Notes under the pieces: model-generated | The model's input: only the letters and a program-made list of their open reading frames with translations | What the model was told of the DNA's origin: nothing | The model's database searches: none | NCBI GenBank assembly: GCA_964411925.1 | Contig: CAYPNI010000005.1 | Span: 1 to 62,802 of the forward strand | Source: an uncultured Nitrospirales bacterium | GTDB lineage: Bacteria > Hydrogenedentota > Hydrogenedentia > Hydrogenedentales > GCA-2746185 | DNA: 62,802 bases | Reading direction: 5' to 3' | Translations under genes and position numbers: made by a program | Shown: positions 1,739-57,460 of the stretch, piece after piece | Numbering within the stretch: position 1 is the stretch's first letter | Layout of the letters: the number at the start of each line of letters is the position of its first letter

Positions 1739-1804
1739 TTTCCCTGATAGCAGGGAATTGGACCGTAGAGAAAAGTTCGTCGATGACTCGCAACACCGCC
1801 ATCC
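1739..1804. repeat. Intergenic ~66-bp direct repeat, copy 1 (TTCCCTG-N4-CAGGGAA palindrome plus tRNA-3'-like tail); att-like scar
   Basis: TTTCCCTGATAGCAGGGAATTGGACCGTAGAGAAAAGTTCGTCGATGACTCGCAACACCGCCATCC aligns with 9903-9967 at 54/66 positions (one gap, by hand). Perfect inverted repeat TTCCCTG/CAGGGAA at 1740-1757. Ends in CCGCCAT, identical to tRNA-Ser 88-94. Confidence 0.8.
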
Positions 1805-1936
1805 AGTCACCTCATCGCGAGCAGTCGCCGGGTTGGGGATTGAGTAACGTCTAAATTCTTGACGACCACCGGCTTTTTATCGTTATCCCGTCCTGATAGG
1901 GTAGTTGACTCAACTGAGAAGTAATACGCTTGGGCC

Positions 1937-4900
1937 ATGCGTTCTCAAGACTCGATCGCGGACGAATTCGGCGCCTCCCGGGAGCGGGTTCTTACTCTGG
2001 TGTTTACAGATCTCGCGGGATCGACCGCGCTCAAGTCTGAGCTGGGGGATCGCGCCGTCGCGGGGCTCCTTGCGCGGCACCGGGCTCACATCGAACAACT
2101 GGCTGCGGCACGCGATGGACGGGTGATCGACTGGGCTGGCGACGGCTGTTTCCTGACTTTTGAAACGTCGAGCGCGGCGGTCTTGTTCGCGTTGGCATTG
2201 CAGCAAGTTCACGCGACGGAATCCGATCTGCCGGGCGTACGCATTGGAGTTCATCTCGGGGAAATTACGGAGTCATCGCCGCGCGGAGGAGGTGCGACTC
2301 GGGTCGAAGGTCTCGCGGTCGATCTCGCCGCCCGCGTATGTTCATTGGCTCGCCCCAGCCAAGTGTTGATGTCCTCCTTCGTGTTCAACAATGTTCGCCA
2401 ACGAATACGCGGTGAAAACCTGGGGATCGCCATCGCGTGGCGCGCGCATGGACCGTACGAACTAAACGGATTCGACGATCCTTTCGAGATCTGCGAGGCG
2501 GGGATCGTCGGAATCGCTCCGCTCGAACCACCGGTTGGCGGCGAGAAGGCGCATCGAGCGGTGACACCGGGCGAGGAAGACTCGTTTGGCTGGCGCCCGG
2601 CGGTCGGACTCAATGTACAACGCCGTGATCACTGGGTGCTCGAGGAACAGCTCGGCCAAGGTGGATTCGGCGAAGTGTGGCTTGCGGTACATGCGAAGAC
2701 ACGGGCAAAGCGAGTATTTAAGTTCTGCTTCGAGCCTGAGCGCGTGCGCGCACTCAAGCGTGAGGTAGTCCTGTTTCGCCTGCTCAAAGAAACTCTTGGC
2801 AACCGTACCGACATTGCACAGATTGTTGATTGGGATTTTGAACACACTCCGTACTTCATCGAATCGGAGTACACCGAGGGCGGTGATCTGCGCGTCTGGG
2901 CCGCCGCACAGGGCGGACTGGATCAGGTTCCACTCGGGACGCGTCTCGAACTGATCGCGCAAGTCGCCGTGGCGCTTGCCGCCGCCCACAGCGTTGGAGT
3001 GTTGCACAAGGACATAAAGCCCGCAAACGTGCTCATCAGCGATTCGGACGGAAGTTCCGCCCCTCGCGTAGTGCTCACGGACTTCGGCATCGGACTCATT
3101 ACAGATCCGGCGGCGCTGGCTGCGCGCGGAATTACGGCGGTTGGCCTGACGCTCACGCTTTCCGGCGCCTCGACGTCGGAGACGGGGGCGGGTACCCGGT
3201 TGTATGTCGCGCCCGAGTTGCTGGAGGGCAAACCCGCGACGACGTTGAGCGACATCTACTCCGTAGGCGTGGTCTTGTATCAAATGGTCATTGGCGATTT
3301 CACGCACGCGATTGGCACGGGCTGGGAACGGGATGTAGCCGACGAGTTATTGCGCGAGGATATGGCCGCCTGCCTGGACGGCGATCCCGCCCGCAGGCTG
3401 CGCAGCGCGGGTGAGCTCGCAGAGCGTCTGCGCACTCTAAAGTCGCGGCGCGCCGAACGGCACGCACGGCGAGAGATCGAGCGGCAAGCCGAGCATACCC
3501 GCCGACGCCGACGGCAACTTTCGTTCATCGTGGGTGTAGTCTCGGCCATCGCAATTATGGCCGGTCTGTTTTCCTGGCAATTGTACCGGCGGGCCGAGAG
3601 CGAGCGTGGCCTCAACCTCGAAGCACAGGCCGCGCGGAGTGCCGCCGAACAGCAGTTGTACTACGCCCAAATTCAACTTGCCGCGAGCCAGATCGGCCAG
3701 GGTCGTCTGGAGAGCGCGATTCTCGCGCTCGAGAATTCACCCGCGGCTCACCGTAATTGGGAATGGGGTTACCTGGTCCATCTTGCGTTCTCCGATCTAC
3801 TGGCTCCACGCCAATCGACGCCGGCGACCGATGTGGCCACGGTGAATTCCGCGGAGCTATGGCGTGGCTCCCGTGCGGTGAACGCTACCTCCTGGCGCGA
3901 ACACGCCACCGAGATCAACATGATTCATCTGCCGGACGAAGGTACCGTGTTCAGTGTGTCGGACGACGGCACGCTGCGCGCTTGGGATCTGGTCACTGGA
4001 AAATTGGTGCGCACATTCGGCGATGGAAACGACGCCCTTTTCTGCGTCGACTACCACGCTGGAACTGACCGCGTCACGGCGGCAGGATTCGACGGGATTC
4101 TTTACGTCTGGGACGCGAAGACGGGCAACGTACTGTGTGCGGAGGAGGTGCCCGCATCCAGTGCTATTTTCGATGTCGCGATCGATCCGGCTGGCAGAAG
4201 GATTTACACGGCGAGCACCGGTATGGTCGGGGTGTTTGACCTTGAAGAAAAAGCCTTTCTGAAACCTTTTGGTTGCGATGGCGTCGTGTCCGATCTGGCA
4301 ATCGATGCTGAAGGACGCCGACTGACCGCGGTCTCGCTAAATGGCCACGTCATGTCCTGGGATGCGGAATCGCGGGTCCCGGGAACTGTCGTGCGCAATC
4401 CCGGTGTAGAGAATTCGACTTCTGCGATTTTCAGCCCCGGGTTGGATTTGATCCTGTCCGGATTACCGGATGGAAACGCAGTCCTCTGGGACGCACGAAC
4501 CGGCGATGTGAAGTGCAAAATCGCCGGCAAGGTTCCACCGATTACTCACGTCGCATCCTTCAGTCCCGATAGCGCGGCTGTTGCTGTGCCCGATGGACGC
4601 AACGGCGCGGCGGTCTACGAAACCGAGACCGGAGTTCTGCTTGCCCGGCTAGAAGTCCCCGATGACGGAATTCGCTCAGTTGCGTTTCATCCGAAGGGGC
4701 GGCAGGTGCTCGTCGGCGGCGTACAGGGGACGTTGCGTGTGTGGGAACCAGCATCCCAGGATTTGGGGATCGATTCCAACGTCCTGCGAGGTCATACCGA
4801 CACGATCTACTTCGCTGCGTTCAGTCCTGACGGCCGTCGGCTCGCGTCAGCCTCTTTCGACCATACGGTACGGGTGTGGGATGTCGAGACCGGGCGCGAG

Positions 4901-5902
4901 ACAGCAGTTCTCGACGAGCACCCTACGGAAGCCCTTCACGCCACTTTCTCAACCGACGGCCGTTATCTCCGCACGCAGGGCACCGATCACACTGTGCGGG
5001 TCTGGGATGCGCATCGCTTCGACCTTCTGCACACGATTGTCGCCGACCCCGAGCATCAATGGGCCATCGCATCGCAGCGCATCCGTGCTGTCGACATGAT
5101 GGGAGGGGCGGCGATGTTGGGCACCATGATCGATCCGTCGTCCTCCAGAATCAGCGTGAACCTCCGCGACAGTCTGGGCATTTACGACTGCGCCTCCGGC
5201 AAACAGGTCGCCGATTTTCACCGTGACGGATTCCGCGCGGGCTTCCAAGCCTTCAGCCCTGACGGCCGCATTGTCGTTTCCACTTCGACCGGCACCGACG
5301 TATGGGCCATCGACGCGGCGACCGGGTCTCTGCTTCATCAATTCGAAGGACACACCGGACCGGTAACCATGCCCTCCGTTTCACCCGATGGCCGCCGGGC
5401 CGTAACGGGCAGTTTCGACAAGTCGATCCGTGTGTGGGACCTCATCAACGGAGGTGAGCTTCGCAAGTTCGAAGGCCACCAGGCTTTTGTTGTGACCGCG
5501 CGTTTCGATGCGAGCAGCACACACGTGCTCAGCTCCTCTGGCGATGGCACGGCGCGCATCTGGGACATTGAATCAGGCAAGGAAGTGGCGCGCCTCTCTG
5601 GTCATGGCGGTATGTTGATCAACGCAGACTACAGCCCCCGCGGAGATCGCATTCTCACCTACGGATGGGACAACACCGCCAAGGTGTGGGACACCAGCGG
5701 CCGCGAACTCGTCACGATCCCGATGCCGAAAGGGATCGTGCACGGCATCTGGAGCCCGGACGGCCATACGCTGGCGCTCAGCGGCACGGACGGCCGCCTG
5801 CACCTCGTGCGTGCGCTTCCCTGGGAGAATTTTGGTCAGGAATACAACGGCGAACACTGGCTTAGAAACGCGATCGCACAGTGGGTCCAGGAGAGAGAAT
5901 GA
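1937..5902 (+). CDS. Multidomain membrane receptor: class III nucleotide cyclase + Ser/Thr protein kinase + TM helix + WD40 beta-propellers
   Basis: Cyclase motifs FTDLAGST, AGDG, RIGVHLG, AVDLAAR; kinase motifs GQGGFGEVW, HKDIKPAN, DFG, APE, SDIYSVG; TM segment LSFIVGVVSAIAIMAGLFSW; many GH..(F)SPDG..(S)xDxTxRVWD WD40 repeats. Confidence 0.9.
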   Translation: MRSQDSIADEFGASRERVLTLVFTDLAGSTALKSELGDRAVAGLLARHRAHIEQLAAARDGRVIDWAGDGCFLTFETSSAAVLFALALQQVHATESDLPGVRIGVHLGEITESSPRGGGATRVEGLAVDLAARVCSLARPSQVLMSSFVFNNVRQRIRGENLGIAIAWRAHGPYELNGFDDPFEICEAGIVGIAPLEPPVGGEKAHRAVTPGEEDSFGWRPAVGLNVQRRDHWVLEEQLGQGGFGEVWLAVHAKTRAKRVFKFCFEPERVRALKREVVLFRLLKETLGNRTDIAQIVDWDFEHTPYFIESEYTEGGDLRVWAAAQGGLDQVPLGTRLELIAQVAVALAAAHSVGVLHKDIKPANVLISDSDGSSAPRVVLTDFGIGLITDPAALAARGITAVGLTLTLSGASTSETGAGTRLYVAPELLEGKPATTLSDIYSVGVVLYQMVIGDFTHAIGTGWERDVADELLREDMAACLDGDPARRLRSAGELAERLRTLKSRRAERHARREIERQAEHTRRRRRQLSFIVGVVSAIAIMAGLFSWQLYRRAESERGLNLEAQAARSAAEQQLYYAQIQLAASQIGQGRLESAILALENSPAAHRNWEWGYLVHLAFSDLLAPRQSTPATDVATVNSAELWRGSRAVNATSWREHATEINMIHLPDEGTVFSVSDDGTLRAWDLVTGKLVRTFGDGNDALFCVDYHAGTDRVTAAGFDGILYVWDAKTGNVLCAEEVPASSAIFDVAIDPAGRRIYTASTGMVGVFDLEEKAFLKPFGCDGVVSDLAIDAEGRRLTAVSLNGHVMSWDAESRVPGTVVRNPGVENSTSAIFSPGLDLILSGLPDGNAVLWDARTGDVKCKIAGKVPPITHVASFSPDSAAVAVPDGRNGAAVYETETGVLLARLEVPDDGIRSVAFHPKGRQVLVGGVQGTLRVWEPASQDLGIDSNVLRGHTDTIYFAAFSPDGRRLASASFDHTVRVWDVETGRETAVLDEHPTEALHATFSTDGRYLRTQGTDHTVRVWDAHRFDLLHTIVADPEHQWAIASQRIRAVDMMGGAAMLGTMIDPSSSRISVNLRDSLGIYDCASGKQVADFHRDGFRAGFQAFSPDGRIVVSTSTGTDVWAIDAATGSLLHQFEGHTGPVTMPSVSPDGRRAVTGSFDKSIRVWDLINGGELRKFEGHQAFVVTARFDASSTHVLSSSGDGTARIWDIESGKEVARLSGHGGMLINADYSPRGDRILTYGWDNTAKVWDTSGRELVTIPMPKGIVHGIWSPDGHTLALSGTDGRLHLVRALPWENFGQEYNGEHWLRNAIAQWVQERE

Positions 5903-7686
5903 TGCGCGTTCGATACTCGATCGTCGTAGTGCTGGCCTGCGGTTACCTCCTCACCGCTTGCGCGCATCTCGAATCGCTCCCGAAATCCTCCGGCCCCGAC
6001 GTCCCGCACGTCGAATCGGGTCTGTCTCGCGCAGATCTCGAAACCTTTTACGAACTGCCCATGGGCACGGGCATCTTCGAGTTCCACGGGTTTATGGCCA
6101 TTCGCGATCCGAAGACCGGTGAACTGTTCGCAAAAAACCTCGAACGTTTTGGATTTCTTGCGGATCCGGATTCACCTACTGGCCTTCCCGTTGGGATGAC
6201 CGTCGAGCGGCCGGCCGGCGTGCCTTTTGAGATGATCGGACTCAATTGTGCCGCGTGTCACACGGCCGAGTTCCGTTACAACGGTCAATCGTTCCGCGTG
6301 GACGGCGCGCCGAACCGCATCGATCTTTTCGCGTTCAAGCAGGACCTTGTGAACGCCGCCGAGCATACACTGCACCATCCCGAAGCCGGTTTTGTGCTGT
6401 TGTTACAAATGGCACACGACCATGCATCCACCAAGAAACTGCTTCGCGAAGTAGAAAGCCGTGATGAATTGCTTGAACAAGGGGACTTGGGCAAGGCACT
6501 GTCGGATGAAATCAACATGGTGGTAGAGCGCGATTCGCAAGCCCACCAAAATGCGGACGTTGCGTTGCCTGAGTTTGCATACTCGACCGACAACTCGGCA
6601 GCGCATCTGGCCGGGTTGAACGCGCGCGATGGCGGGCCGCTCGATCAGGATGATCCCAAGCGCCGCCATCGCCACGTGGAAGACACGCTCGACGAGTGGG
6701 AACGCAACGTACGACTCTTCTCGAGCTGGGTACACATCGTCAAAGCGAATCTTCGTACACCGGCCGGGATGACGCCTCCGGGACCGGGCCGCGCCGACGC
6801 ATGGGGTGCGGTGCGAAACGTGCTGTTCGATCAACGGCCCCTGACGGCGCCCGCCTCGATCCCGCCGATTTGGGGTGTGGGTTCGTACGAGTGGTTTCAG
6901 TGGAACGGCACGACCAATACCAACGTACAGCGCGGTATCGCAGCGGCGATCGGCGCCGGCGCCTATTTCGACAGACGGACCGGCGAGTCTCCGATCAGGG
7001 TGGACAATATCTTCAGACTCGAAGGTCTGGCGACGGCGATGCACCCACCTCGCTGGCCTGATGTGTTTCCTGCTATCGACGCGACCAAGGCCGACCGCGG
7101 CCGCGTACTCTACGAGGCGAAATGCGCTCGCTGCCACAACGCCTCGACGACTACCGAAGGTGGCCTGATACGGTTCCCTGAATATACGGTCGAAGAGACG
7201 GGCACCGATCCCAACTATGTCCGCAATTTCGCTGAGCCAGCAGGCGATCAGTCCTATGTGTCGCGGCTCGGAGAGTTCATGGGGAAGATGGAGGAACAGT
7301 ATTACCGGGCTCACACGGTGTCGGCGGCGACGCGCGCAGAGTGGGAGCCCGCGTCGCGCCGTCCGGGGCAGTGGCGCGCACCCCTCTCATATCCGGCACG
7401 TTCCCTGGCGGGTGTGTGGTCGACGGCGCCCTACTTGCACAATGACTCAGTACCCACGCTCCACGATTTGCTCTTGCCGGCACAACAACGACCCGCGCGG
7501 TTCTACACGGGCTCGCGTGAGTTCGATCCGCAGCGCGTCGGCTATCTTTCGGACGCTGGTGCGCCGGGGGCAAGCTTTGAATTCGACACCGGCCTGTCGG
7601 GAAATTCAAATGCAGGACATGACTACGGCAGCGAACTGTCCGATGCCGAGCGCTGGGACCTGATTGAATACCTGAAGACGCAGTGA
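5899..7686 (+). CDS. Di-haem cytochrome c, RoxA/cytochrome c peroxidase-like, predicted lipoprotein (paralogue 1)
   Basis: ATG 5899 overlaps upstream TGA (ATGA coupling); lipobox LTAC; CXXCH motifs CAACH (6247-6261) and CARCH (7123-7137); PGRADAWG and WSTAPYLHNDSVPTL motifs typical of the RoxA/MauG-CCP fold. Confidence 0.82.
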   Translation: MMRVRYSIVVVLACGYLLTACAHLESLPKSSGPDVPHVESGLSRADLETFYELPMGTGIFEFHGFMAIRDPKTGELFAKNLERFGFLADPDSPTGLPVGMTVERPAGVPFEMIGLNCAACHTAEFRYNGQSFRVDGAPNRIDLFAFKQDLVNAAEHTLHHPEAGFVLLLQMAHDHASTKKLLREVESRDELLEQGDLGKALSDEINMVVERDSQAHQNADVALPEFAYSTDNSAAHLAGLNARDGGPLDQDDPKRRHRHVEDTLDEWERNVRLFSSWVHIVKANLRTPAGMTPPGPGRADAWGAVRNVLFDQRPLTAPASIPPIWGVGSYEWFQWNGTTNTNVQRGIAAAIGAGAYFDRRTGESPIRVDNIFRLEGLATAMHPPRWPDVFPAIDATKADRGRVLYEAKCARCHNASTTTEGGLIRFPEYTVEETGTDPNYVRNFAEPAGDQSYVSRLGEFMGKMEEQYYRAHTVSAATRAEWEPASRRPGQWRAPLSYPARSLAGVWSTAPYLHNDSVPTLHDLLLPAQQRPARFYTGSREFDPQRVGYLSDAGAPGASFEFDTGLSGNSNAGHDYGSELSDAERWDLIEYLKTQ

Positions 7687-7721
7687 GCGGATACCGATCG
7701 CATGAAATGCGGAGACCATCG

Positions 7722-9653
7722 ATGAACGGCAAATGGACCTTCAATTCCTGCGCAGGTGGCATGATTGCCGCAGTGCTGACTACGATCGTTATCGGCGGTT
7801 GCGTTACGCCCGATCCCGGAACTGCACTCGCGCGCGACTTTCAGCTCGTAGATACGCGGAACGGTCTGTCCGACGCCGACCGTGACGCCTTCTATCACAT
7901 CAGCGAGGGCAGCGAACTCGCACCGCTGTCACTGTTCCAACTCTTGTACGTCATAAACGGCAAGCGCCTGTCGGACTGGCTCGAGGGCTTCGGCTTCATT
8001 CCTGATCCGCAAAACGAGCATGGGTTACCGGTCGGCTTTTCGGTGTCTCAGTCGCGCGCGCACGGCATCAGAATGGTGGGCATCAATTGCGCTGCATGTC
8101 ACGTCACCGACATCCATTTCCAGGGCAAGCGCATTCGGGTCGACGGCGCGCCCAATCAGGTCGACATCGTTCGTTTTTATCGCGATCTGGCCGATCATTC
8201 TCTCGCGATTGCGCAGTCGGCGGACCGCGTGTTCAGTCTGTTCCGCCATTCGGAACCCAAGCACGACGTCTCGCGAGATTTTATTGAACACATCTCGTCG
8301 CTCGATGATCTCAGGGCTGACAGCGAGTACGGCCGGCAAATGGCTGAACGCCTTGGACCGGTGCTTGCGGCCGAGGAGCGGAACGTTGCGGCCGGCGTGG
8401 CGGCGAGCGGACACGATTACGTTCACGACGTCCTGACCGGGAAACGTCTCGAACAGGACCCCGAGGCAATCGCGACGCATACCGCCAGTCTCATCGCGGT
8501 TCCGCCTGCGCCGGGCCAGGCGTTACACACGGCCTTAGGATCGGATCACCGAGCGGCGGCTTCGCACGTTTTCGAGGACTTCGGATCGTTTGCGCGCCTT
8601 TTGCATGCCCAGGTCGCCTATCTGCGTCGCCTCAAAGACATTGTCGATGAGATGACTATACAGACCGGCCCTGGCCGCATCGACGCCTTCGGCATCGTCC
8701 GCAATCTTTTGTTCATACCCAAAAACGAAGTATTTCCCATCGACGCGCCGGTCTCCATCCCCCATCTGTGGGGACTCCAGGACGTTCACTGGCTGCACTG
8801 GAACGCAAACACAAACTCCGTAGTACAACGAAACATTGCACAAGCGCTCGGCACCGGCGCCTACCTGGACATGGACACGTGGGAAACGACTGTCGAAATC
8901 GAAAACCTTGACGCGCTCGAGAAACTCAGTCAGAAGATCGAAGCGCCGAAGTGGCCGGAGGATCTCTTCGGCCCGATCGATCAGCAGGCCACCGCACGGG
9001 GCCGCGTGATCTACCAAGCGCTTTGCGCCCAGTGTCACGACGCCGTCAAACGCACTGAGCCGCTAATCGATTACGAGCTCTTCGGGCTGGCGGACAGCAA
9101 GGTGGCAGAGAATAAACGGGTGGATACCGACTCCAACTACGCTCACAATTTCGACATCCCCGTCGGCGACCGGCCATTCCCGCTCGCCGTACAGGATGTA
9201 GTGGGTAAATTGGAGGATCACTACTACGACAGGCACGCCATCTCCAAGTCGACCAGCGACGAATGGAAGGGCGCGCATCGGCACAACGTGGAGTGGCGGA
9301 CTCCACTGAGCAAAAATAACACGACCGATCCGGTGCATCCGGTGTATCCGGCGCGTCCCCTGGCAGGCGTGTGGGCGACCGCGCCCTACCTGCACAATGG
9401 GTCGGTACCGTCCCTCTACGCGCTTCTTACCCGCTACGAGAGATATTTCGACGAGGAGGACAAGACCTTCCACGTAGGACATCGCGAATTCGATCCGGTC
9501 CATGTTGGCTACGCGAGTCACGCGGATGACGATATTGCGTCTCATCGATTCGACACAACCCTGCCTGGAAATTCGCCTCGGGGCCACCTCTTTGGCGTGG
9601 ATCTATCGGAACGAGACAAGATGGATCTCGTCGAGTTTCTGAAGACTCTTTAA
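7722..9653 (+). CDS. Di-haem cytochrome c, RoxA/cytochrome c peroxidase-like, predicted lipoprotein (paralogue 2)
   Basis: GGAG RBS before ATG 7722 (alternative GTG 7683 overlaps upstream stop); lipobox-like IGGC; CAACH (8088-8102) and CAQCH (9024-9038); GPGRIDAFG and WATAPYLHNGSVPSL; collinear with paralogue 1. Confidence 0.82.
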   Translation: MNGKWTFNSCAGGMIAAVLTTIVIGGCVTPDPGTALARDFQLVDTRNGLSDADRDAFYHISEGSELAPLSLFQLLYVINGKRLSDWLEGFGFIPDPQNEHGLPVGFSVSQSRAHGIRMVGINCAACHVTDIHFQGKRIRVDGAPNQVDIVRFYRDLADHSLAIAQSADRVFSLFRHSEPKHDVSRDFIEHISSLDDLRADSEYGRQMAERLGPVLAAEERNVAAGVAASGHDYVHDVLTGKRLEQDPEAIATHTASLIAVPPAPGQALHTALGSDHRAAASHVFEDFGSFARLLHAQVAYLRRLKDIVDEMTIQTGPGRIDAFGIVRNLLFIPKNEVFPIDAPVSIPHLWGLQDVHWLHWNANTNSVVQRNIAQALGTGAYLDMDTWETTVEIENLDALEKLSQKIEAPKWPEDLFGPIDQQATARGRVIYQALCAQCHDAVKRTEPLIDYELFGLADSKVAENKRVDTDSNYAHNFDIPVGDRPFPLAVQDVVGKLEDHYYDRHAISKSTSDEWKGAHRHNVEWRTPLSKNNTTDPVHPVYPARPLAGVWATAPYLHNGSVPSLYALLTRYERYFDEEDKTFHVGHREFDPVHVGYASHADDDIASHRFDTTLPGNSPRGHLFGVDLSERDKMDLVEFLKTL

Positions 9654-9902: not shown

Positions 9903-9967
9903 TTTCCCTGAAGGCGGGGGATTGAACGTAGAAAAAAGTTCATCGATGGCTCCCAGCACCGTCATCC
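9903..9967. repeat. Intergenic ~66-bp direct repeat, copy 2 (more degenerate palindrome)
   Basis: TTTCCCTGAAGGCGGGGGATTGAACGTAGAAAAAAGTTCATCGATGGCTCCCAGCACCGTCATCC, same orientation as 1739-1804 and 8164 bp downstream. Confidence 0.8.
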
Positions 9968-10235
9968 GTTTGCACCCGCCCATCTAACAATCACTCCCCC
10001 AGGGAACCGGGCCGGGAAATCCTCCCGAAGTCGCGACAAAGGGCCGTCCCGCACACCAGGCCACCTCGGCCGAGGGCCGAGTTACCGTCGCAGCTCGACC
10101 CCACTACTTCATACTGTGTCTAGGTGTAACTAGAGTTATAGACTTTGAGTATCACGACAGGATAGATTGGCGTGCAACGTCGAATCGCTGCGCCAGACCA
10201 GCGTCCTTTGCGCTAACCAAGAAAACGTTCTATAC

Positions 10236-12407
10236 ATGAGCGAGACAGAGAATCGGCCCCTCCGTGCCCGCGCGGCGATTCCATTCCTACTCTTGCTGAT
10301 TTGGGGCGCGGCCATTTTTGTGTCCGCGGCGTATCTCCGGTTCCACCGGATTACCGAGGAAGGTGTCACGGAGGAAGACTCGGTCGGCTACTATCTCATT
10401 GCTCTCCTGTGGCTCGATGGCGACTATAACCTGTGGTGGGATCAGTTCTATCGCCCGGTCGTATACGGCCTGAACGCCCTTGCGCTTCACGTGATTGGAA
10501 TCAACGATTTTTCGCTCAAGGTGTTCAGTGGCGCATGCGACGTACTGACCATCGCGCTCCTGATTTGCATCGGCAAACAGCTCTCCGGGCGCTACCTTTG
10601 CGGACTGCTCGCCGCCCAACTTTACGCGGTTCTTCCCTTCGTGGTTCGATACGCTCGAACCGCGATGCCGCATGCCCTGTCGACCCTTCTCGTCGCGGCG
10701 GCGGTGGCAGCGTTCTGCGTGGACCGAACCCGCAGACTCGTTTTCCCTCTCCGCCTGGTCTGTGACGGCGTATGCGGCATGCTCGTCTCACTCGCAGCGC
10801 ACACCCACGGGGAACTTGCCTTGCTCGGCCCGGGATTCTTCGCGACCCAGTGTTGCGAGGAACTCCCGTCAACGTTGCGTTGGCGCGCCAGGCTGGGCCG
10901 GCTTTTCTGCCGGGGATTTGCGCTAACGCTTGGGTTCGCGATCCCGTGCGTCGTCGGGGCCCTGCTTCTAGGGGTCGAGCGCGTCGAAAAAGTATTCAAG
11001 GCTGAGTTCGGCGCGACGACATCTACGCCGGCGTACGTAGAGAGGTCGCCCCTGATCTCGACGCCGGCGCGAATTTTCACGGTGTCTTCGGACCTGCTCT
11101 ACCACAACTCGTGGGTACTTCCGGCATTTATCCTGATGCCCATCATGGGATGGATCGCCGCAAAATCGAGATACGGCCGGCAGGCGCCGCTCGCAGGTGT
11201 CGCGCCGTTTGTCCTTGTGGCGACGTACGTACTGGCTTTTCCGCTGACCATCGGATTGTTCGAAGCGTCTTACGTCCGGGTGTTCATGCCGATGCTACCG
11301 CTGATCTTTCTCGCGTTCGCATGCGGCGTGTGGCAGTCGACGGATGTCGCGCGGGGATCGATAGGCCGCGCGGCGTTCGCCGTCATCGTCGTTGTGATTA
11401 CGCTCGCCACCCCCAATGGACTGTTCAAGCCGAATTTCTTCAAGTCGGAAGCGGACTTCCGAACGAGCCGGTTCCGGACTGTGTACAACGCGATCGGCGA
11501 TCGGGTGACCCCAGAGAACAAGCTGCTGATCGTTCCCGCGGCAGCGAATTCCAATGCGGGATATCAGCTCCCGTTCTATTTCGGCAAAAACGCGGTGTTT
11601 CTTTCCTCGCTTGAGCGCCGGGAACCTTACACTCAGGACTTGCTCGTGTCGACCATCGAGACTGAAAAGTTCTCGTACATTTTCGAGTCGTTGAGAATCG
11701 ACCCTGTGTTCGCCATTGCGAACTGGCACCGTACTCCGGACAGTCTGCGCTGGTTCCGCGGAATGGACATGAAGGACTATTCCGTCGAGGCGGAACAACA
11801 GCTCGTCCGGCAAGGCTTGGCCGCCGCGGATGCGCACGTATTGACAACGACGCCATGGGGGACCATCTACAGCCGGAACAAGCGAACGGTGTTCCCGAAC
11901 AGCGATTTCGCGTCCGGGACACTGGATCACTGGCACTCCGAAGGCCTGGATGAACTCTTTTCACCCGCCACCCTGCCGCTTAAGGAATATGAAAAGACGC
12001 GAGTCCTGCGATCCCCGATGACACTTCGCGGGCCGGTGGTGCTGAAAGGACCTGACGTCAAGCGGCGATACGCGATCGACACTCGGGCGGAAAGCCTGAC
12101 GGGAAAGGCCGCTGCGGAGAAGCACGGGCGCGCGAACCTGGTGGGCGAACTCGTTTCGGACGTGTTCTACATCGAGGAGCCGGTAATCGGCTTTCGGATC
12201 GCCGGCTCGGGTGACATCACCAATGTCCACGTTGCGCTCAAACTGGATGATCTGGAGTATCGGACGTCGACCGCCGGGCGGGACTTCGCTTGCGCGGAGT
12301 GGAACGTCTCCGAGCACGTTGGTATGCGGGCCCAGATCATCATTCGGGACACAGACCCGCGGCAAAACCGGGGCATTGCGGTTGCAGGTTTTTACTACGT
12401 CTTCTAG
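10236..12407 (+). CDS. GT-C fold (ArnT/PMT-like) membrane glycosyltransferase with C-terminal periplasmic beta-sandwich
   Basis: About 11 hydrophobic segments; acidic loop TEEDSVGYY after TM1; FYRPVV and RYARTAMPHA ArnT-like features; soluble C-terminus NSDFASG...GELVSDVFYI...IGFRIAGSG...WNVSEHVG. Alternative TTG start at 10167. Confidence 0.65.
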   Translation: MSETENRPLRARAAIPFLLLLIWGAAIFVSAAYLRFHRITEEGVTEEDSVGYYLIALLWLDGDYNLWWDQFYRPVVYGLNALALHVIGINDFSLKVFSGACDVLTIALLICIGKQLSGRYLCGLLAAQLYAVLPFVVRYARTAMPHALSTLLVAAAVAAFCVDRTRRLVFPLRLVCDGVCGMLVSLAAHTHGELALLGPGFFATQCCEELPSTLRWRARLGRLFCRGFALTLGFAIPCVVGALLLGVERVEKVFKAEFGATTSTPAYVERSPLISTPARIFTVSSDLLYHNSWVLPAFILMPIMGWIAAKSRYGRQAPLAGVAPFVLVATYVLAFPLTIGLFEASYVRVFMPMLPLIFLAFACGVWQSTDVARGSIGRAAFAVIVVVITLATPNGLFKPNFFKSEADFRTSRFRTVYNAIGDRVTPENKLLIVPAAANSNAGYQLPFYFGKNAVFLSSLERREPYTQDLLVSTIETEKFSYIFESLRIDPVFAIANWHRTPDSLRWFRGMDMKDYSVEAEQQLVRQGLAAADAHVLTTTPWGTIYSRNKRTVFPNSDFASGTLDHWHSEGLDELFSPATLPLKEYEKTRVLRSPMTLRGPVVLKGPDVKRRYAIDTRAESLTGKAAAEKHGRANLVGELVSDVFYIEEPVIGFRIAGSGDITNVHVALKLDDLEYRTSTAGRDFACAEWNVSEHVGMRAQIIIRDTDPRQNRGIAVAGFYYVF

Positions 12408-12460: not shown

Positions 12461-13744
12461 TCAGCGTTGCATGGACCCCGTTTTGAGGTCGAACCGGTGC
12501 GAGACCTGTCCGAAGGAGTCGTACCACGCCGCACACCCCCGCGCGAAGTAGTGGAACACGATCGAGCGACGGGTCCGCTGCATGTTGGTGCGCGGCGATC
12601 CTTCGTGCGCGAGGTTCGAGTGCCACACGAGCACATCACCCGCCTTGGGTAGATAGGCCACTTTCTTTGGATAGTGAGCGGCGAGATCGGATTTGAGCCG
12701 CTCGAAGTACTTGTCGTAGTAGGAGCCGATGCGGTCCAGACGCTTACCCGCCTGCTCCACGCCCAGCGTGTGCGTATAGACCACGGGCAGGCGGTGGCTT
12801 CCCGGGTGATACATGACAGGACCGGAATCCGGCTGAATGTCCTCCAGCGGATACCACACGCCGACCATGAATCCCTCCGGGAATGGCGTCAGGTGGATCG
12901 TGTCCTGGTGCACGCCTTGTTGGCTGCCGTTCACGAACGTCAGGGACTGGCACGGCGCGGGCGCGGAACCGAAGATGCAGTGCAGGATGTTCATCATCGG
13001 CGGATACGCCCAGAGAATGTGCGCGGGTACGCTTTCCAGGTGCATCCCGCGGATCCGCTGCTGGTCGTCTACCGCGCCATCCTTGAGTTTCTTGCTGATG
13101 TCCTGGTTGATGCGCATGATCAAGTCAGGCGGAACAAACTTCTCGATGATTAACGCGCCTTCGTCGATGAACTGGTGGAACGCCTTCTCCAGGGACGGAT
13201 CGATGCCGAACTTCGCCAGCATGGATGTCACCCGCTCGTGCGCGTCTGGTTCGTCCACCCAGGGACGGACCTCGCAGCCCTCGAAGGGGAAATCCCGGGC
13301 GTCGAGCGGCTCTTTCATGAGCACCTTCGATCGATCCCAACCGCGAATGTGCTTGGCAACCCCCTGGGCGACTTCGTCGGAGTTGTCCACGGTGAGCGGC
13401 AACGAAGACTCCTTGGCGACTTCGCCGGAGTTCGACCGCAAGCGAAGCTTGACCGTCGCCGGGCCGTTGTCCAGCATGAACGTGTTGATGATCGTGCGGT
13501 ATTCCTCGGCGTCGCCCGTGCCGTTGGAGAACGTATGAATCGTCGTCCATTCGCCGTTGTTGACGGAACATTCGAGTACGCCGTCTTTGAACCGGGCGGC
13601 GCCGAACAGCGGCAACAGCGCCGTGACGTTCGTGCGTTCCCGGGGTAGGCTGACATGGAACGTTGGCTTGTAGGGATCCATGATCGTACGCTTCAGCGCC
13701 TCCCACCTTGTCATTGGCCGAGATCGACCCGGGGTTTGGTTCAT
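12461..13744 (-). CDS. Phytanoyl-CoA dioxygenase (PhyH) family Fe(II)/2-oxoglutarate dioxygenase with N-terminal Ig-like segment
   Basis: HQDT (HxD) motif, VGVWYPLED, PGSHR, GDVLVWHSNLAHEGS (distal His) and RRS 2-oxoglutarate-binding motif. Confidence 0.85.
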   Translation of the reverse strand: MNQTPGRSRPMTRWEALKRTIMDPYKPTFHVSLPRERTNVTALLPLFGAARFKDGVLECSVNNGEWTTIHTFSNGTGDAEEYRTIINTFMLDNGPATVKLRLRSNSGEVAKESSLPLTVDNSDEVAQGVAKHIRGWDRSKVLMKEPLDARDFPFEGCEVRPWVDEPDAHERVTSMLAKFGIDPSLEKAFHQFIDEGALIIEKFVPPDLIMRINQDISKKLKDGAVDDQQRIRGMHLESVPAHILWAYPPMMNILHCIFGSAPAPCQSLTFVNGSQQGVHQDTIHLTPFPEGFMVGVWYPLEDIQPDSGPVMYHPGSHRLPVVYTHTLGVEQAGKRLDRIGSYYDKYFERLKSDLAAHYPKKVAYLPKAGDVLVWHSNLAHEGSPRTNMQRTRRSIVFHYFARGCAAWYDSFGQVSHRFDLKTGSMQR

Positions 13745-13832: not shown

Positions 13833-14825
13833 CTATCCCTTACGTAGAACTGAGTCAATGGCCGCGCGCTCCGCATCGGACAGCGGGCCGAGAGACAAAC
13901 CGGCGATATTCTCGTCCAACTGCCCCACGCGGCTGACGCCGATGAGGGCGCTCGAGATTCGTGCGTTGCCCAGCACCCAGGCCAGCGCCATCTGTGCAAG
14001 GGTGCGATTGTTCGCCTTGGCCAGTTCGTTCAGCGCGCGCGCCTTGTCAATGGCCGCCTGCGTGACTGCGGACTCGGGGAGCGTGCCTTCGCGTCGGGCC
14101 GCGCGCGAATCCTTGGGGACGCTCTCGAGATACCGGCTGGTCAGAAGGCCCTGCGCCAACGGCGAGTAGGCGACGATCCCCACGTCTTCGAGTTCGGGGG
14201 CCCGAAGCAGGCCGCCCTCGATGTCGCGCCGAAAGAGCGAATAGTTCGCCTGAATGACCGTCAGCGGACTTCCGAGACTTTGCAGAATCCGTCGCATCTC
14301 AATGGACTTCGCGACGTCGTAGTTGCTAATCCCGAGATACAGCGCCCGGCCCGTCCGCACGATGTAGTCCATCGCCGCGCACGTTTCCTCCAGCGGCGTA
14401 TCCGCGTCGTACCGGTGGCTGTAGAAAATATCGACGTACTCGAGCCCCATTCGCTTCAGCGACCGATCCAGGCTCGTAATCAGCGCCTTGCGCGATCCGC
14501 CCTCGCCGTACGGTCCGTGCATGAGACGGAATCCCGCCTTTGTCGCGATCAACAGTTCGTCGCGGTAGGCACCGAGTTCGCCCGAGAGAATTCGTCCGAG
14601 CGTCAGCTCGGCCGCGCCGCCCGGCGGGCCGTACCCGTTCGCCAAGTCGAAATAGGTGATGCCGCGATCGAACGCACGGTGCACGAGATCGGCCGCGTTC
14701 TTCGGATCGTCTGTGCCGCCGAAGTTGTTCCAGAACCCGAGCGAAAGGGCTGAAAAGCGCAGGCCGCTCCCGCCGCTCCGGCGGTATTGCATGGCCGAAT
14801 ATCGGTCGTTGGCGAACGGCACCAT
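13833..14825 (-). CDS. Aldo/keto reductase (YghZ/MgrA-like, Kv-beta subfamily)
   Basis: YRRSGGSGLRFSALSLGFWNNFG, FDLANGYG, IATKAG, DIFYSHR, YLGISNY, AYSPLAQGLLT; GGGAGA RBS upstream of ATG 14825 (ORF-track N-terminal extension not supported). Confidence 0.9.
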   Translation of the reverse strand: MVPFANDRYSAMQYRRSGGSGLRFSALSLGFWNNFGGTDDPKNAADLVHRAFDRGITYFDLANGYGPPGGAAELTLGRILSGELGAYRDELLIATKAGFRLMHGPYGEGGSRKALITSLDRSLKRMGLEYVDIFYSHRYDADTPLEETCAAMDYIVRTGRALYLGISNYDVAKSIEMRRILQSLGSPLTVIQANYSLFRRDIEGGLLRAPELEDVGIVAYSPLAQGLLTSRYLESVPKDSRAARREGTLPESAVTQAAIDKARALNELAKANNRTLAQMALAWVLGNARISSALIGVSRVGQLDENIAGLSLGPLSDAERAAIDSVLRKG

Positions 14826-14979
14826 CGAGTCTCCCGGTCGATCTGAATGCGGCGGGGTGCGCCGGCGCCGCATGAGCGCGCATCGTACCAGATTCGAGGC
14901 CATGGGCCGGTTGATGTATGCTTTCGGACTTTCGCCGCGGTGTGCGATCTGAAGAACGCAGACGACGAGGGAGATCCGC

Positions 14980-15963
14980 GTGTCCATACTGGTGACCGGC
15001 GGCGCGGGCTACATCGGCAGCGCGATCCTGGAACGGCTCGTCGCTGACGGGGAATCCGTGGTTTGCCTGGACAACTTTTCGACGGGCCATCGCGATGCGG
15101 TTTGCGGCGGCGTCGAACTGGTCGAGGGATCAATCCTCGATGGACCATGCGTGCTGGACACGTTGCGCCGGTTTGACGTGGAAACGGTCATTCATTGCGC
15201 GGCGCTCTCCATCGTCGAGGAGTCGAATCGAGCGCCCTTGGCCTATTTCGAGAACAACGTCGCCGGAGCGCACGTTGTCCTGAAAGGAATGGTCGAATGC
15301 GGCGTCACGCGATTCGTCCTGAGTTCGACCGCAGCGGTCTACGGAAATCCCATCGAAGTCCCCATACGCGAGAATCATCCGATCGCGCCGCTTAACGCCT
15401 ATGGCCGATCCAAACGCATGATCGAGGAAATGCTGGAATGGCACGGGCGCGCGTACGACTTCTCGTACGTTTCGCTGCGCTACTTCAACGCTGCCGGGGC
15501 CACCATCGAGCACGGGGAGGACCACAATCCCGAGACCCATCTCATCCCCATTGTGCTCGACGTAGCGCAGGGCAGGCGAACCAGCATTCAGATATTTGGA
15601 AACGACTATCCGACGGCAGACGGCACCTGCGTTCGCGACTACATCCACATCTCCGACCTTGTCGATGCGCACGTCCGGTCGGTCGCGCATCTGCGGGCGG
15701 GAAACCCATCAGAGGTGTTCAACCTCGGGACCGGTTCGGGCCACTCCGTGCTCGAAGTCGTGCAAGCGGCCGAACGGGTCACCGGCCGCCGGGTACCGCA
15801 CGAAGTCGCTCCGCGCCGATCCGGCGACGCGGCCTCGCTCGTGGCGTCGCGGGACAAAGCGATGGATCGGCTTGGCTGGTCACCCAGCCGGAGCGCTATT
15901 GCAGAAGTGCTCGTTGACGCGTGGCGCTGGAAGCAGGTCCATCCGAACGGCTATACGCGCTAA
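14980..15963 (+). CDS. galE: UDP-glucose 4-epimerase
   Basis: GAGGAG RBS, GTG start; ILVTGGAGYIGS, SSTAAVYG, YGRSK (YxxxK), LRYFNAAGA, GEDHNPETHLIP, DGTCVRDYIH. Confidence 0.95.
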   Translation: MSILVTGGAGYIGSAILERLVADGESVVCLDNFSTGHRDAVCGGVELVEGSILDGPCVLDTLRRFDVETVIHCAALSIVEESNRAPLAYFENNVAGAHVVLKGMVECGVTRFVLSSTAAVYGNPIEVPIRENHPIAPLNAYGRSKRMIEEMLEWHGRAYDFSYVSLRYFNAAGATIEHGEDHNPETHLIPIVLDVAQGRRTSIQIFGNDYPTADGTCVRDYIHISDLVDAHVRSVAHLRAGNPSEVFNLGTGSGHSVLEVVQAAERVTGRRVPHEVAPRRSGDAASLVASRDKAMDRLGWSPSRSAIAEVLVDAWRWKQVHPNGYTR

Positions 15964-50361: not shown

Positions 50362-51723
50362 TTAAATCCCCGACAGGTAGCCGAGTTCACCGGTGCTGTC
50401 GCCCAGCGTGTCCGCGGGCACGCCCATGCGATCGAGCAACGAGACGTAAAGATTCGTCATCGGCGTCTCGAGCGGATAACGCACATGGCGGCCCGGCGTG
50501 ATCGTGCCGCAGCCCCGTCCCGCGATCAGCACAGGCAAGTCGTCATGGAGATGCGAGTTTCCGTCGCTGAGGCCGCTGCCGTAAATCAGCATGCAATGGT
50601 CGAGCAGCGTGCCGTCGCCGTCGGGTGTGGACGCCAGTTGATCGAGAAAATACGCGAACTGCTCCATGTGGTGTCTGTTGATCGCGCGGATTTTCGCGAC
50701 CTTTTCCGGATCCTTGAGGTGATGCGAGAGTTCGTGGTGCCCGCCCTCCGCCCCGATCTCGGGATACGATCGGTTGCTGCCTTCGCCGCCGATCATGAAC
50801 GTCACAACGCGCGTCTGGTCGGTCTGAAGCGCGAGCACCTGCATGTCATACATGAGCCGGGCGTACTCGACGAATTCTTTCGGCACGCCGTCGGGCGTCT
50901 CACCCACCGGCCCGCGCGATTCCGCCGCGAGGTTCTCCGCGAACTCGATCCGTTTTTCGATCTTGCGCACGGAGTACAGGTATTCGTCGAGTTTGCCGCG
51001 ATCGGTCGGGCCGAGCTTGCGCATGAGCCGCTGCGTGTCATCCGACACGAAGTCGATGATGCTCTTGCGGTACGCGCGGCGGCGGGCGATGTCCGCGGCG
51101 CTCTCGTCTCCGCGCGACGCGCCGAACAACCGCTCGAAGACGTGCCGCGGGTTGTGCTCGGGTGGGTTGGGCGTCTGCGGCGTGCGCCACGAGATGCTGT
51201 TGCTGTACGCGCAGCTATAGCCCGAGTCGCACGAGCCCGCCTGCCGCCCCGGTTCGCACGTCAATTCGAGCGACGCGTAGGGCGTTGCGTCCTCGAGCGC
51301 TGCTGCGGCGATCTGATCGACGGATATGCCGCACTGAATGTCCACCCCGGCCGTCTTCTTCGGGTGCACGCCGGTGAGATACGACGCCGCGGCGCGCGCG
51401 TGGTCCCCCGCGCCGTCGCCGAGCGCCCGGCCGTTGTTGTGCGTAAGTCCGCTCAGGACCAGGATGTTCTCACGGTGGTTCGCGAGCGGAGCAAGCGTCG
51501 GCGGCAGTTCAAACGCCGCGCCCTCGGCCGCGGGAAGCCAGTTCTCCATCGCGACGCCGTTCGGCACGTAGGTGAACGCCATGCGCAGCGGGGATTTCGG
51601 GACTGCGGACGTCGGCGCCGCGAACGCGGGCGTCATCGCGTCGAGCAGCGGCAGGGATAGCGCCGCGCCCACTCCGCGCAGGAACGTCCGCCGATCCAGC
51701 TTGCCGCCCGTAATCGGTTTCAC
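50362..51723 (-). CDS. DUF1552 (HXXSHH) domain protein
   Basis: RRTFLRG.GAALSLPLLDAM, YVPNG, SVDQIAA, GYSCAY...ISW, HHELSHH, YGSGLSDGN.H..DLP; GTG overlaps the upstream TGA. Confidence 0.92.
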   Translation of the reverse strand: MKPITGGKLDRRTFLRGVGAALSLPLLDAMTPAFAAPTSAVPKSPLRMAFTYVPNGVAMENWLPAAEGAAFELPPTLAPLANHRENILVLSGLTHNNGRALGDGAGDHARAAASYLTGVHPKKTAGVDIQCGISVDQIAAAALEDATPYASLELTCEPGRQAGSCDSGYSCAYSNSISWRTPQTPNPPEHNPRHVFERLFGASRGDESAADIARRRAYRKSIIDFVSDDTQRLMRKLGPTDRGKLDEYLYSVRKIEKRIEFAENLAAESRGPVGETPDGVPKEFVEYARLMYDMQVLALQTDQTRVVTFMIGGEGSNRSYPEIGAEGGHHELSHHLKDPEKVAKIRAINRHHMEQFAYFLDQLASTPDGDGTLLDHCMLIYGSGLSDGNSHLHDDLPVLIAGRGCGTITPGRHVRYPLETPMTNLYVSLLDRMGVPADTLGDSTGELGYLSGI

Positions 51724-53681: not shown

Positions 53682-53865
53682 GAAACCAGTATGCCATGCG
53701 TGGGCTGGGATTGGGAGCGTTGGCCGGCCGATGAGCCCCCGCCTCGAGGATCCGTCGCGCGGTTCGAACACCCGGCCACGCGCATTCCCGGCGCGCTGTA
53801 CAACGCGCGAATTTCCCCGTAGGATGGTTCGCTGGGCGCGAATTCGACCCGAAGGGAGGTCTCCA

Positions 53866-54705
53866 GTGCTGGGCAAACGCGAGCACGCGGCGGCGTTACT
53901 CCTCTTCGCGTTGCTGATGACGTCGGTGCCGATGGGCCTCGCGTCCGCGCAGACTCCTGGGTTTCCACAAGGCGGGCCCACGCCGCCAACGTCTTCGGCG
54001 GGTGGCGCGGATCCCGCCGCCGAGATGTTGCGCCGGCAAATGGAACTGCAGGAGAAGTTGGTGCTCGAGCGCATGCGACGGGATGCCGAGAACAAGAAAG
54101 CCGAGCCAGCCGCCGAAGAAGCCAAAGAACCGGAGAAGCCCGCTCAGACTGCGCCTGAAGAAGCGCCTAAGCCCAAGGAAGCGCCGCCGCCGGCGCCGAA
54201 GCCCGAGGGACCGACGCTCAACGAGACGCTGAAGTGGATCAAAAGCCGGTGCCGGCCCGTGGACGATGCCACGGAACCCAACTGGGCGAAGCCGCATGTG
54301 ACGGAACTCGTCGAAAAGCTTTCGTACCTCAAGTCGTACACAGGCAAGAGCTGCGTCGTGCAACAGGACCAAATCGGCGAGAACACGGTCAACGTTTACA
54401 CGTTTGAATTCGAACTGCCTCAGTTAGACGCGTCTGCCGTGAAGATCGCGCAGGTCGACGCGTCGCCGGATGCGCCGTGGACGGTCGCTATCGAAACCCG
54501 GTCAGCCGAGGCCACGATCAAACAATCAGCGCGTTTCAGCTTCGCCGACGCGAGCGAGGACGAACAGCCGGCTGCAACGGTATCCATGGTCGCGTCCGTT
54601 GTGGTGGCGCAAGTTCAGGACAAGGATTCCGCGGATCGGCTGGCCGATGCCTGGCGGCACGCGATTACGCTCGCGGGGGGCGCGGCGAACCGGGAACTGT
54701 TCTGA
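53866..54705 (+). CDS. Secreted hypothetical protein with coiled coil and Pro/Glu/Lys-rich linker
   Basis: GGGAGG RBS before GTG 53866; signal peptide ending ASA-Q; PEK-rich linker followed by a TLNETLKWI globular domain. Confidence 0.6.
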   Translation: MLGKREHAAALLLFALLMTSVPMGLASAQTPGFPQGGPTPPTSSAGGADPAAEMLRRQMELQEKLVLERMRRDAENKKAEPAAEEAKEPEKPAQTAPEEAPKPKEAPPPAPKPEGPTLNETLKWIKSRCRPVDDATEPNWAKPHVTELVEKLSYLKSYTGKSCVVQQDQIGENTVNVYTFEFELPQLDASAVKIAQVDASPDAPWTVAIETRSAEATIKQSARFSFADASEDEQPAATVSMVASVVVAQVQDKDSADRLADAWRHAITLAGGAANRELF

Positions 54706-57249: not shown

Positions 57250-57460
57250 GATCGTTTCCCGGCTCGCGATACGCTGTCCGAACGTGCGCAATCCGCACCC
57301 GGGCAGAGTCTAGCAAACGATGGGGGAGGGGAACGCCCCTGACCCGGGCGGGCGTGGCGGCGCAGTCCTCGGGCCCCCGGGGTCGTCCCGGACCGCTGAA
57401 GTACGAGGTCCGGCGTCAAGCCCCGCACACAAAAACGCAGGCGGCGCCGCAGCCGGAGTC

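Follow-up and report, generated by a model that had tools for sequence, protein, structure and literature searches.

Analysis of a 62,802-nt stretch of contig CAYPNI010000005.1 (assembly GCA_964411925.1; the whole stretch is called the window below) led to a three-gene module on the forward strand. A 1321-aa receptor with a nucleotidyl cyclase domain, a Ser/Thr kinase domain, a transmembrane (TM) helix and a double WD40 propeller is followed by two genes for di-haem c-type proteins, which we call dh1 and dh2. Receptors that share the ectodomain subtype of this protein have a dh1-type gene directly downstream in all five of the other loci (5/5) found among the matches listed. This linkage throughout the subtype, together with a predicted topology in which the WD40 region lies outside the cytoplasm, supports a functional unit of receptor and di-haem protein. 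We put at about one in two (0.5) the probability that this unit works as an enzyme-coupled sensor which detects lipid oxidation in the periplasm and gives kinase and cyclic-nucleotide outputs.

The receptor gene lies at 1937..5902 (+) and its product combines in one chain the cyclase, the kinase, the TM helix, a stalk and the double WD40 propeller. The class III nucleotidyl cyclase homology domain (aa 18-152; 1988..2392, +) matches Guanylate_cyc PF00211 above the gathering cut-off (E-value = 8.4e-7, 29.2 bits, cut-off 21.9), while the Hanks-type Ser/Thr kinase domain (aa 235-456; 2639..3304, +) matches Pkinase PF00069 (E-value = 3e-28, 99 bits), and WD40 and beta-propeller models cover aa ~650-1290 in the profile search. 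Concerning the cyclase, the nearest solved structure is the cyclase domain of Rv1900c/LipJ (1YBT, E-value = 1.5e-18), and a PDB sequence search also matched Ma1120 and Rv1264. In an alignment of 20 homologues the metal-binding residues D25 and D69 and the transition-state residue R133 are invariant and align with the Rv1900c motifs. The same number of homologues showed that the G-loop of the kinase (G240-G245), K262, E276, H357-K358-D359, N364, D382-F383-G384 and A425-P426-E427 are all invariant; since the Arg of the HRD motif is replaced by Lys (HKD), the kinase is of the non-RD type. The only strong hydrophobic window of the protein is the TM segment at aa 527-548 (3515..3580, +), with a Kyte-Doolittle (KD) value of 2.28, a preceding RRRRR and seven K/R residues on its N-terminal side vs three on its C-terminal side. 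By the positive-inside rule, and because the cyclase and the kinase require nucleotide triphosphates, we predict an N-in/C-out orientation with the cyclase-kinase head in the cytoplasm and the propellers in the periplasm. On this predicted topology the protein belongs with the membrane-spanning Ser/Thr kinases (STKs) with a periplasmic WD40 array of the Planctomycetota type, and the same topology, with the WD40 region extracytoplasmic, has been predicted for the planctomycetal STK-WD40 proteins (PMC11032199). An earlier note, made from the letters of this DNA alone, had described a 1321-aa polypeptide with a cyclase, a kinase, one TM helix and an extracytoplasmic WD40 array; the profile matches, the hydrophobicity and the structure model bear out that architecture, and the predicted topology agrees with the placement of the WD40 region.

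The periplasmic ectodomain (aa 549-1321; 3581..5899, +) was modelled with AlphaFold2 (AF2) at a predicted local distance difference test score (pLDDT) of 89.4 and a predicted template modelling score (pTM) of 0.82. The model shows a stalk formed by a long helix, a small helical bundle that holds an RNWEWGY motif, and about 14-15 blades arranged as a tandem double propeller, and its best Foldseek matches are tandem WD40 propellers (2ymu, Pwp2/Utp21 and Apaf-1). It is this part of the protein that defines the subtype, a rare one. In BLAST comparisons aa 641-1321 scored 1076, 542, 488 and 487 bits against the receptors linked to di-haem genes and at most 271 bits against every other receptor. Counting as subtype-specific those positions that are invariant in five linked receptors and rare in 28 paralogues, we found 82 in the ectodomain vs 4 in the cytoplasmic half. 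One paralogue, P0005 (L171, 2106-6089), is 78% identical to the window receptor in the cytoplasmic half and 28% identical in the ectodomain, and has no di-haem gene; this pattern suggests an exchange of ectodomains upon a conserved signalling head. Heads that lack WD40 repeats bear TPR arrays instead in all six cases sampled (6/6). Because both the linkage and the specific positions track the ectodomain and not the head, the cyclase-kinase head is a generic output module common to many paralogues and the ectodomain is the specialised part.

The stop codon of the receptor overlaps the start codon of dh1 in an ATGA at 5899-5902, exactly as the earlier note had read it. The dh1 gene (5899..7686, +) encodes a 595-aa, probably membrane-tethered periplasmic di-haem c protein with haem-binding motifs CAACH (aa 117-121; 6247..6261, +) and CARCH (aa 409-413; 7123..7137, +), both invariant in the di-haem alignment. 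The open reading frame of dh2 spans 7683..9653 (+), and alignment with the orthologue in L172 points to ATG 7722 as the probable start, which gives a protein of 643 aa (7722..9653, +) with motifs CAACH and CAQCH (nt 8088-8102 and 9024-9038, +). With this start a spacer of 35 nt follows the dh1 stop, so the genes overlap at the first junction only. A terminator scan found no convincing terminator between the genes, and both the promoter and the terminator scans of the operon were uninformative, as their sites were no commoner than in shuffled sequence. The arrangement is that expected of an operon with translational coupling at the first junction. Candidate lipoboxes were found by inspection in dh1 (LLTA-C21) and dh2 (VIGG-C27), and in the alignment the orthologues carry either a lipobox or an uncleaved signal anchor; the two proteins are putative lipoproteins, and their periplasmic location is predicted from topology. 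The view that two coupled di-haem proteins follow the receptor holds for the two genes and their CxxCH pairs, and fails at the second junction, which is probably a spacer.

The two di-haem proteins are 35% identical to each other and belong to the RoxA-like/NF040606 family. Both match PF21419 RoxA-like_Cyt-c and the NCBIfam model NF040606 (di-heme cytochrome c peroxidase), the latter with 363 and 359 bits (cut-off 150), and both show the features of the family, namely two CxxCH motifs, a size of ~60-70 kDa, the His of a PYLHN-SVP motif and a C-terminal GH, the motifs being invariant in the di-haem alignment. The characterised relatives of dh1 and dh2 are RoxA and the pair PA2077/PA2078 of P. 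aeruginosa, and those family members whose function is established act as oxygenases on unsaturated hydrocarbon chains. RoxA (4b2n) is the only significant PDB sequence match of dh1 (E-value = 1.2e-12) and also the only significant fold match of its structure model (pLDDT 79.9; E-value = 1.2e-8). Orthology with RoxA, RoxB or RoxC was rejected, as the equivalog models gave 38-63 bits against cut-offs of 900-1000. An exhaustive HMMER search returned 4,735 cluster representatives of the di-haem family, 1,140 of them at E <=1e-30, of which a single one lies near dh1 (49% identity, 619 bits), followed by the next at 425 bits. With one near representative among 4,735, the receptor-coupled clade is rare.

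For the comparison of gene neighbourhoods we used the fetched homologue loci (L numbers) and proteins (P numbers) from genomes and metagenomes, among the matches listed, and the counts below are to be read within that set. For the full-length receptor architecture there are more than 100 homologues that are 33-47% identical, and one that is 82% identical. The linked loci are L001, L002/3, L004/5, L169 and L172, six in all together with the window. L001 holds the receptor that is 82% identical to the one in the window, followed by two di-haem genes; L002/3 and L004/5 have one di-haem gene each beside the receptor; in L169 the receptor is followed by two di-haem genes (dhA, dhB), with a lipoxygenase and then a third di-haem gene placed divergently; and L172, a partial contig, is 81% identical to the window in the receptor C-terminus, 80% in dh1 and 77% in dh2. 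Across the six loci the receptor/dh1 junctions vary between a 34-nt overlap and a gap of 11 nt, while the flanking genes vary (GFO/IDH/MocA; Band_7; sulfotransferase; RF-1/MaoC; lipoxygenase) and represent at least four different contexts. Considering the fetched loci with a complete receptor gene and at least 1.5 kb downstream, a di-haem gene follows 4/4 receptors of the subtype vs 0/43 of the other complete receptors (Fisher p = 5.6e-6, with kinship ignored), L169 having been found via its di-haem gene. These 43 have the same cyclase-kinase head with another WD40 or TPR ectodomain, and none has a di-haem gene beside it; P0021, P0037, P0101, P0005 and all 80 metagenome loci with cyclase-kinase heads are likewise unlinked. 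A general link of cyclase-kinase-WD40 receptors to di-haem genes was therefore rejected (0/43 complete paralogues). The converse, that members of the di-haem family generally have such a receptor, was rejected too, as a receptor of the window type occurs in 0/80 genome loci with other members of the family among the matches listed.

The di-haem proteins themselves fall into two clades. The dh1-type clade consists of the window dh1, dhA of L001, the proteins of L172, L002 and L004, and dhA and dhB of L169 (44-87% mutual identity), and every member sits directly behind a receptor. The dh2-type clade consists of the window dh2, dhB of L001, the partial gene of L172 and dh3 of L169 (41-81% identity); the gene in L169 follows the lipoxygenase on the strand opposite to the receptor operon, and no dh2-type gene was found near the receptor in L002 and L004. 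Because it is missing beside the receptor in those two loci and placed elsewhere in L169, dh2 is accessory or optional, and the conserved core is the receptor with one dh1-type enzyme. Two expectations of the earlier note are narrowed in this way: linkage outside the window holds for the ectodomain subtype (5/5 other loci) and not for the architecture as such (0/43), and the supposed self-contained unit of a receptor and two di-haem enzymes shrinks to the receptor and dh1. In L002 (14111-16378) and L004 (13984-16253) two genes lie behind the di-haem gene in the same orientation, first a DinB/MDMPI_N-like one and then one for a glutamate-cysteine ligase, 93% and 81% identical, respectively, between the two loci, which hints at a tie to thiol redox defence.

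Information on the chemistry comes from the wider di-haem family, for which we compared 80 genome loci (Pseudomonas, Nitrosomonas, Acidobacteriota and others). Directly downstream and on the same strand, 23/80 have a catalase-related haem protein of ~380 aa (mostly Pseudomonas; e.g., L073, 11686-12852) and 10/80 a cytochrome P450 (e.g., L045, 10890-12170), the latter in Nitrosomonas, Leptospirales, Rhodothermales and several gammaproteobacteria. These pairs look like uncharacterised two-enzyme lipid-peroxide cassettes. A lipoxygenase follows the family gene in L052 (Ca. Albibeggiatoa), and in L169 (351-3959, -) a lipoxygenase (PF00305, E-value = 8e-65) precedes the dh2-type gene, divergent from the receptor-dh-dh operon. 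Fusions within single polypeptides repeat the theme, with the di-haem module joined to Lipase_3 in P0138, P0258 and P0294, to a catalase-related domain in P0240, P0246 and P0280, and to another di-haem module in P0149 and P0155. Lipases, lipoxygenases, catalase-related enzymes and P450 enzymes are classic families of fatty-acid hydroperoxide metabolism. Since the neighbours and fusions belong to these families, gene association suggests unsaturated lipids and the peroxides formed from them as the substrates of the family. Among the ligands that the earlier note had offered for the propeller, a lipid or an oxidation product gains indirect backing from the neighbours and fusions, and a polymer gains none.

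Under the proposed mechanism, dh1, with or without dh2, would oxidise an unsaturated lipid or fatty acid, or turn over its hydroperoxide, on the periplasmic side of the inner membrane. The WD40 propeller would then most likely dock the di-haem enzyme itself as a co-sensor, or alternatively bind the product of the enzyme; docking is favoured over the binding of a small product because WD40 and TPR arrays are protein-binding scaffolds. Either event could shift the geometry of a receptor dimer, so that the dimer-dependent cyclase and the kinase would be switched together. Several points weigh against a sensor of this kind. The six linked loci represent two lineages only (window/L001/L172 and L002/L004/L169) and cannot be counted as six separate events, and two of them, L169 and L172, came to light by way of their di-haem genes. 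The canonical substrate-specifying Lys of the cyclase is replaced by D65 and the canonical transition-state Asn by D129, which makes activity and nucleotide specificity uncertain in a domain that appears to be kept as though functional; some activity may nonetheless be kept, because Rv1900c deviates at both positions too. The link between the family and lipids is one of guilt by association, and no lipoxygenase or lipase gene lies within the 62.8-kb window. Finally, contact between propeller and enzyme is a proposal drawn indirectly from gene linkage and subtype co-variation, and most members of the di-haem family in the 80 genome loci have no kinase neighbour among the matches listed.

The last two points would also fit co-expression alone, with the receptor sensing an unrelated periplasmic cue and the di-haem enzymes being merely co-transcribed cargo or regulated targets that make no contact with it; paralogous receptors do work without di-haem partners. 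Yet the ectodomain subtype and the dh1-type clade co-occur 1:1 while the head is interchangeable, and in every linked locus the receptor and di-haem genes overlap or lie close together. Other receptor kinases also adjoin di-haem genes. In L174 (2917-8502) the di-haem gene P0130 is followed after 43 nt by the gene of a 1220-aa kinase-TM-WD40 protein without cyclase, which is 35% identical to the window receptor in the kinase and 28% in the ectodomain; in L170 (5297-11174) the di-haem gene P0131 is followed by the gene of a kinase-TM-TPR protein; and in L057 (7178-11443), a metagenome-assembled genome of Verrucomicrobia, the gene of an 832-aa kinase whose C-terminal region is unidentified divergently adjoins a di-haem gene. 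Gene order differs in these three loci and their kinase domains are unrelated to that of the window, and no such kinase neighbour was seen in L173, L012, L022 and L017. On this evidence we consider co-expression alone unlikely.

A second alternative keeps the link to the receptor and changes the chemistry. The di-haem proteins would be true peroxidases or haem sensors of H2O2 or organic peroxides, not oxylipin synthases, and their redox state would report oxidative stress of the envelope to the receptor. The NCBIfam family name, di-haem cytochrome c peroxidase, favours it, as do the DinB/MDMPI_N-like and glutamate-cysteine ligase genes behind the di-haem gene of L002 and L004, and PA2078 of P. 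aeruginosa, a related di-haem enzyme, serves to remove a toxic hydroperoxide (PMC4496055). However, dh1 and dh2 are of the 60-70 kDa RoxA-like type and not of the 35-40 kDa type of bacterial cytochrome c peroxidase (bCCP), the thiol genes occur in one sub-lineage only, and the lipoxygenase, lipase, P450 and catalase-related neighbours and fusions suggest a substrate-specific lipid chemistry. We rate this alternative as less likely still.

It is also conceivable that dh1 acts on protein. MauG oxidises pre-methylamine dehydrogenase post-translationally, and by analogy dh1 might oxidise a residue of the ectodomain or of another protein to give a cofactor or cross-link needed for sensing. The bCCP/MauG superfamily includes protein-modifying enzymes whose genes lie beside those of their substrates (PMC6405878), a precedent for such a pairing, and MauG is the second-best fold match of the dh1 model, at a non-significant E-value of 0.17. 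Set against this, dh1 and dh2 lie in the RoxA-like branch (RoxA models at 38-63 bits), the MbnH family model TIGR04039 left only a trace in dh2 (18 bits, cut-off 363) and did not match dh1, and the 82 subtype-specific ectodomain positions include no Trp, one Cys, three His and four Tyr, so that maturation of this kind appears quite improbable. Anti-phage defence or another kinase-based immune system, raised by PADLOC and NCBIfam matches to mad6, PD-T4-6 and PglW, was rejected as hardly credible, because these matches are confined to the generic kinase domain (aa 226-522) and fall far under the family cut-offs, PADLOC gave no match to the di-haem proteins, and a periplasmic sensor architecture is atypical of such systems.

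The enzyme-coupled sensor of lipid oxidation draws on parts of which several are already described, namely the receptor STKs with periplasmic WD40 arrays (PMC11032199) and the RoxA-like/FadCcp enzymes (PMC4496055), and the cyclase-kinase-WD40 combination is already named in annotations of the Joint Genome Institute (JGI). Our literature search found no published conserved operon that ties a specific ectodomain subtype to a di-haem enzyme, and nothing that describes di-haem proteins as turning up repeatedly next to receptor kinases. The membrane Ser/Thr kinases with WD40 or TPR arrays in the periplasm, which number tens to hundreds in Planctomycetota and related bacteria, have no known ligand or partner (PMC11032199), and this ligand-orphan class of receptors gains here a concrete, testable partner in the form of one particular di-haem enzyme that varies together with one particular ectodomain. 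The RoxA/FadCcp-like family (~4,700 cluster representatives), which has been little studied, is in turn extended into signalling, and comparative evidence is added that it handles fatty-acid or lipid (hydro)peroxides. If both domains of the head are active, the protein would be a rare single receptor with phosphorylation and cyclic-nucleotide outputs. A broader proposal, in which the WD40 propeller is a docking platform, the system is the first bacterial receptor-kinase/cyclase system to perceive oxylipins or envelope lipid oxidation, and RoxA-like di-haem proteins are general periplasmic co-sensors for the ligand-orphan WD40/TPR receptor kinases of Planctomycetota and Verrucomicrobiota, is offered tentatively and strikes us as rather doubtful when taken as a whole.

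Concerning the surroundings of the module, a leader or promoter-proximal segment upstream of the receptor ATG (1873..1920, +) is conserved, matching L001 5077-5124 with 87.5% identity over 48 nt at the corresponding place in the locus of the 82%-identical orthologue, and the remaining intergenic region is not conserved. A 66-nt direct repeat flanks the three genes exactly, with its left copy at 1739..1804 (+) and its right copy at 9903..9967 (+), between dh2 and the next + strand gene; the copies are 82% identical, weaker similarity extends over ~130 nt, and in the 62.8 kb the 21-mer core is present at these two places alone. Each copy precedes genes on the + strand, the left one the receptor operon and the right one a gene for a large PMT_2-like membrane glycosyltransferase (10167-12407), and the repeat may be a regulatory element common to the two or a scar left by recombination. 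It is missing from L001, the closest orthologous locus, has no Rfam match, and its fold is not significant (z-scores -0.5 and -1.1); the Rfam search of the operon and its flanks matched only a tRNA at 3-90. A large glycosyltransferase gene likewise labelled PMT_2-like is found in L012 (12904-15300), where it comes after a PhzF gene and downstream of a Planctomycetales di-haem gene that is unrelated. Further downstream the window holds a PhyH-family dioxygenase (12461-13744), an aldo-keto reductase (13833-14987) and a polysaccharide or O-antigen-type cluster that runs to 36806, with an NAD-dependent epimerase/dehydratase, GT1 and WbsX glycosyltransferases, a 1007-aa MptE-like/GT4 protein, an FkbM methyltransferase and a Wzt-type ABC ATPase. 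Then come a DUF1552/PSD-PSCyt pair of genes (50362-54125, -), as is usual in Planctomycetota, and a second receptor-type Ser/Thr kinase with TPR repeats (54715-57291, -). The PSD/PSCyt, DUF1552, sulfatase and STK-TPR genes are content typical of Planctomycetota, and by gene content the source genome is of the planctomycete type.

Parts of the module resemble known proteins to different degrees. The tandem double WD40 propeller, paired here with a c-type haem protein, recalls Apaf-1 (Foldseek E-value ~1e-33), which is cytosolic and eukaryotic and has a NOD ATPase output, and the likeness is one of analogy only. Rv1900c/LipJ (1YBT) departs from the canonical Lys and Asn of the cyclase like the window receptor, with N and H in the alignment where the receptor has D65 and D129, and its cyclase domain is fused to a lipase-like hydrolase domain instead of a kinase and a receptor. 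PknD of M. tuberculosis is a kinase-TM-beta-propeller protein. Closer in architecture are the planctomycetal membrane-spanning STKs, which share the cytoplasmic Hanks kinase, the single TM helix and the extracytoplasmic WD40 or TPR sensor, and for which no ligand, partner or cyclase is mentioned (PMC11032199); the window receptor differs from them by the N-terminal cyclase domain and by its specific operon partner. Among haem proteins, RoxA (4b2n) aligns with dh1 in the C-terminal GH (H574 of dh1 = H641 of RoxA) and in the PYxHN motif, at 21% identity and a TM-score of ~0.35 and with 63 bits on the NCBIfam RoxA model against a cut-off of 1000, but it is secreted, acts on polyisoprene and has no coupled receptor. 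The nearest functional parallel is offered by PA2077 (10S-dioxygenase) and PA2078 (7,10-diol synthase) of P. aeruginosa, tandem RoxA-related periplasmic di-haem enzymes of ~65 kDa that turn oleate into its 10-hydroperoxide and then the 7,10-diol (10-hydroperoxy- and 7,10-dihydroxy-oleate) (PMC4496055). Like dh1 and dh2, these 'FadCcp' enzymes are tandem paralogues of ~65 kDa with two CxxCH motifs and a PY[LF]HN-SVP motif; the likeness is drawn from published features, the spacing of the haem motifs is 292 aa here vs 245 aa in PA2077/PA2078, and no PA2077-like protein (CAGCH ... PYFHNGSVP) occurs among the fetched loci. Unlike them, dh1 and dh2 would be tethered to the membrane by a lipobox or a signal anchor. 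The oxylipins made by PA2077/PA2078 are autoinducers sensed by the quorum-sensing regulator OdsR, whose gene lies beside those of the enzymes (PMC6377657). The two systems are therefore alike in having a gene for a sensor or regulator beside the enzyme genes, with products that can signal in the Pseudomonas case, and they differ in the sensor itself, which is a cytoplasmic LysR regulator in P. aeruginosa and, in the window, a predicted transmembrane cyclase-kinase with a WD40 ectodomain.

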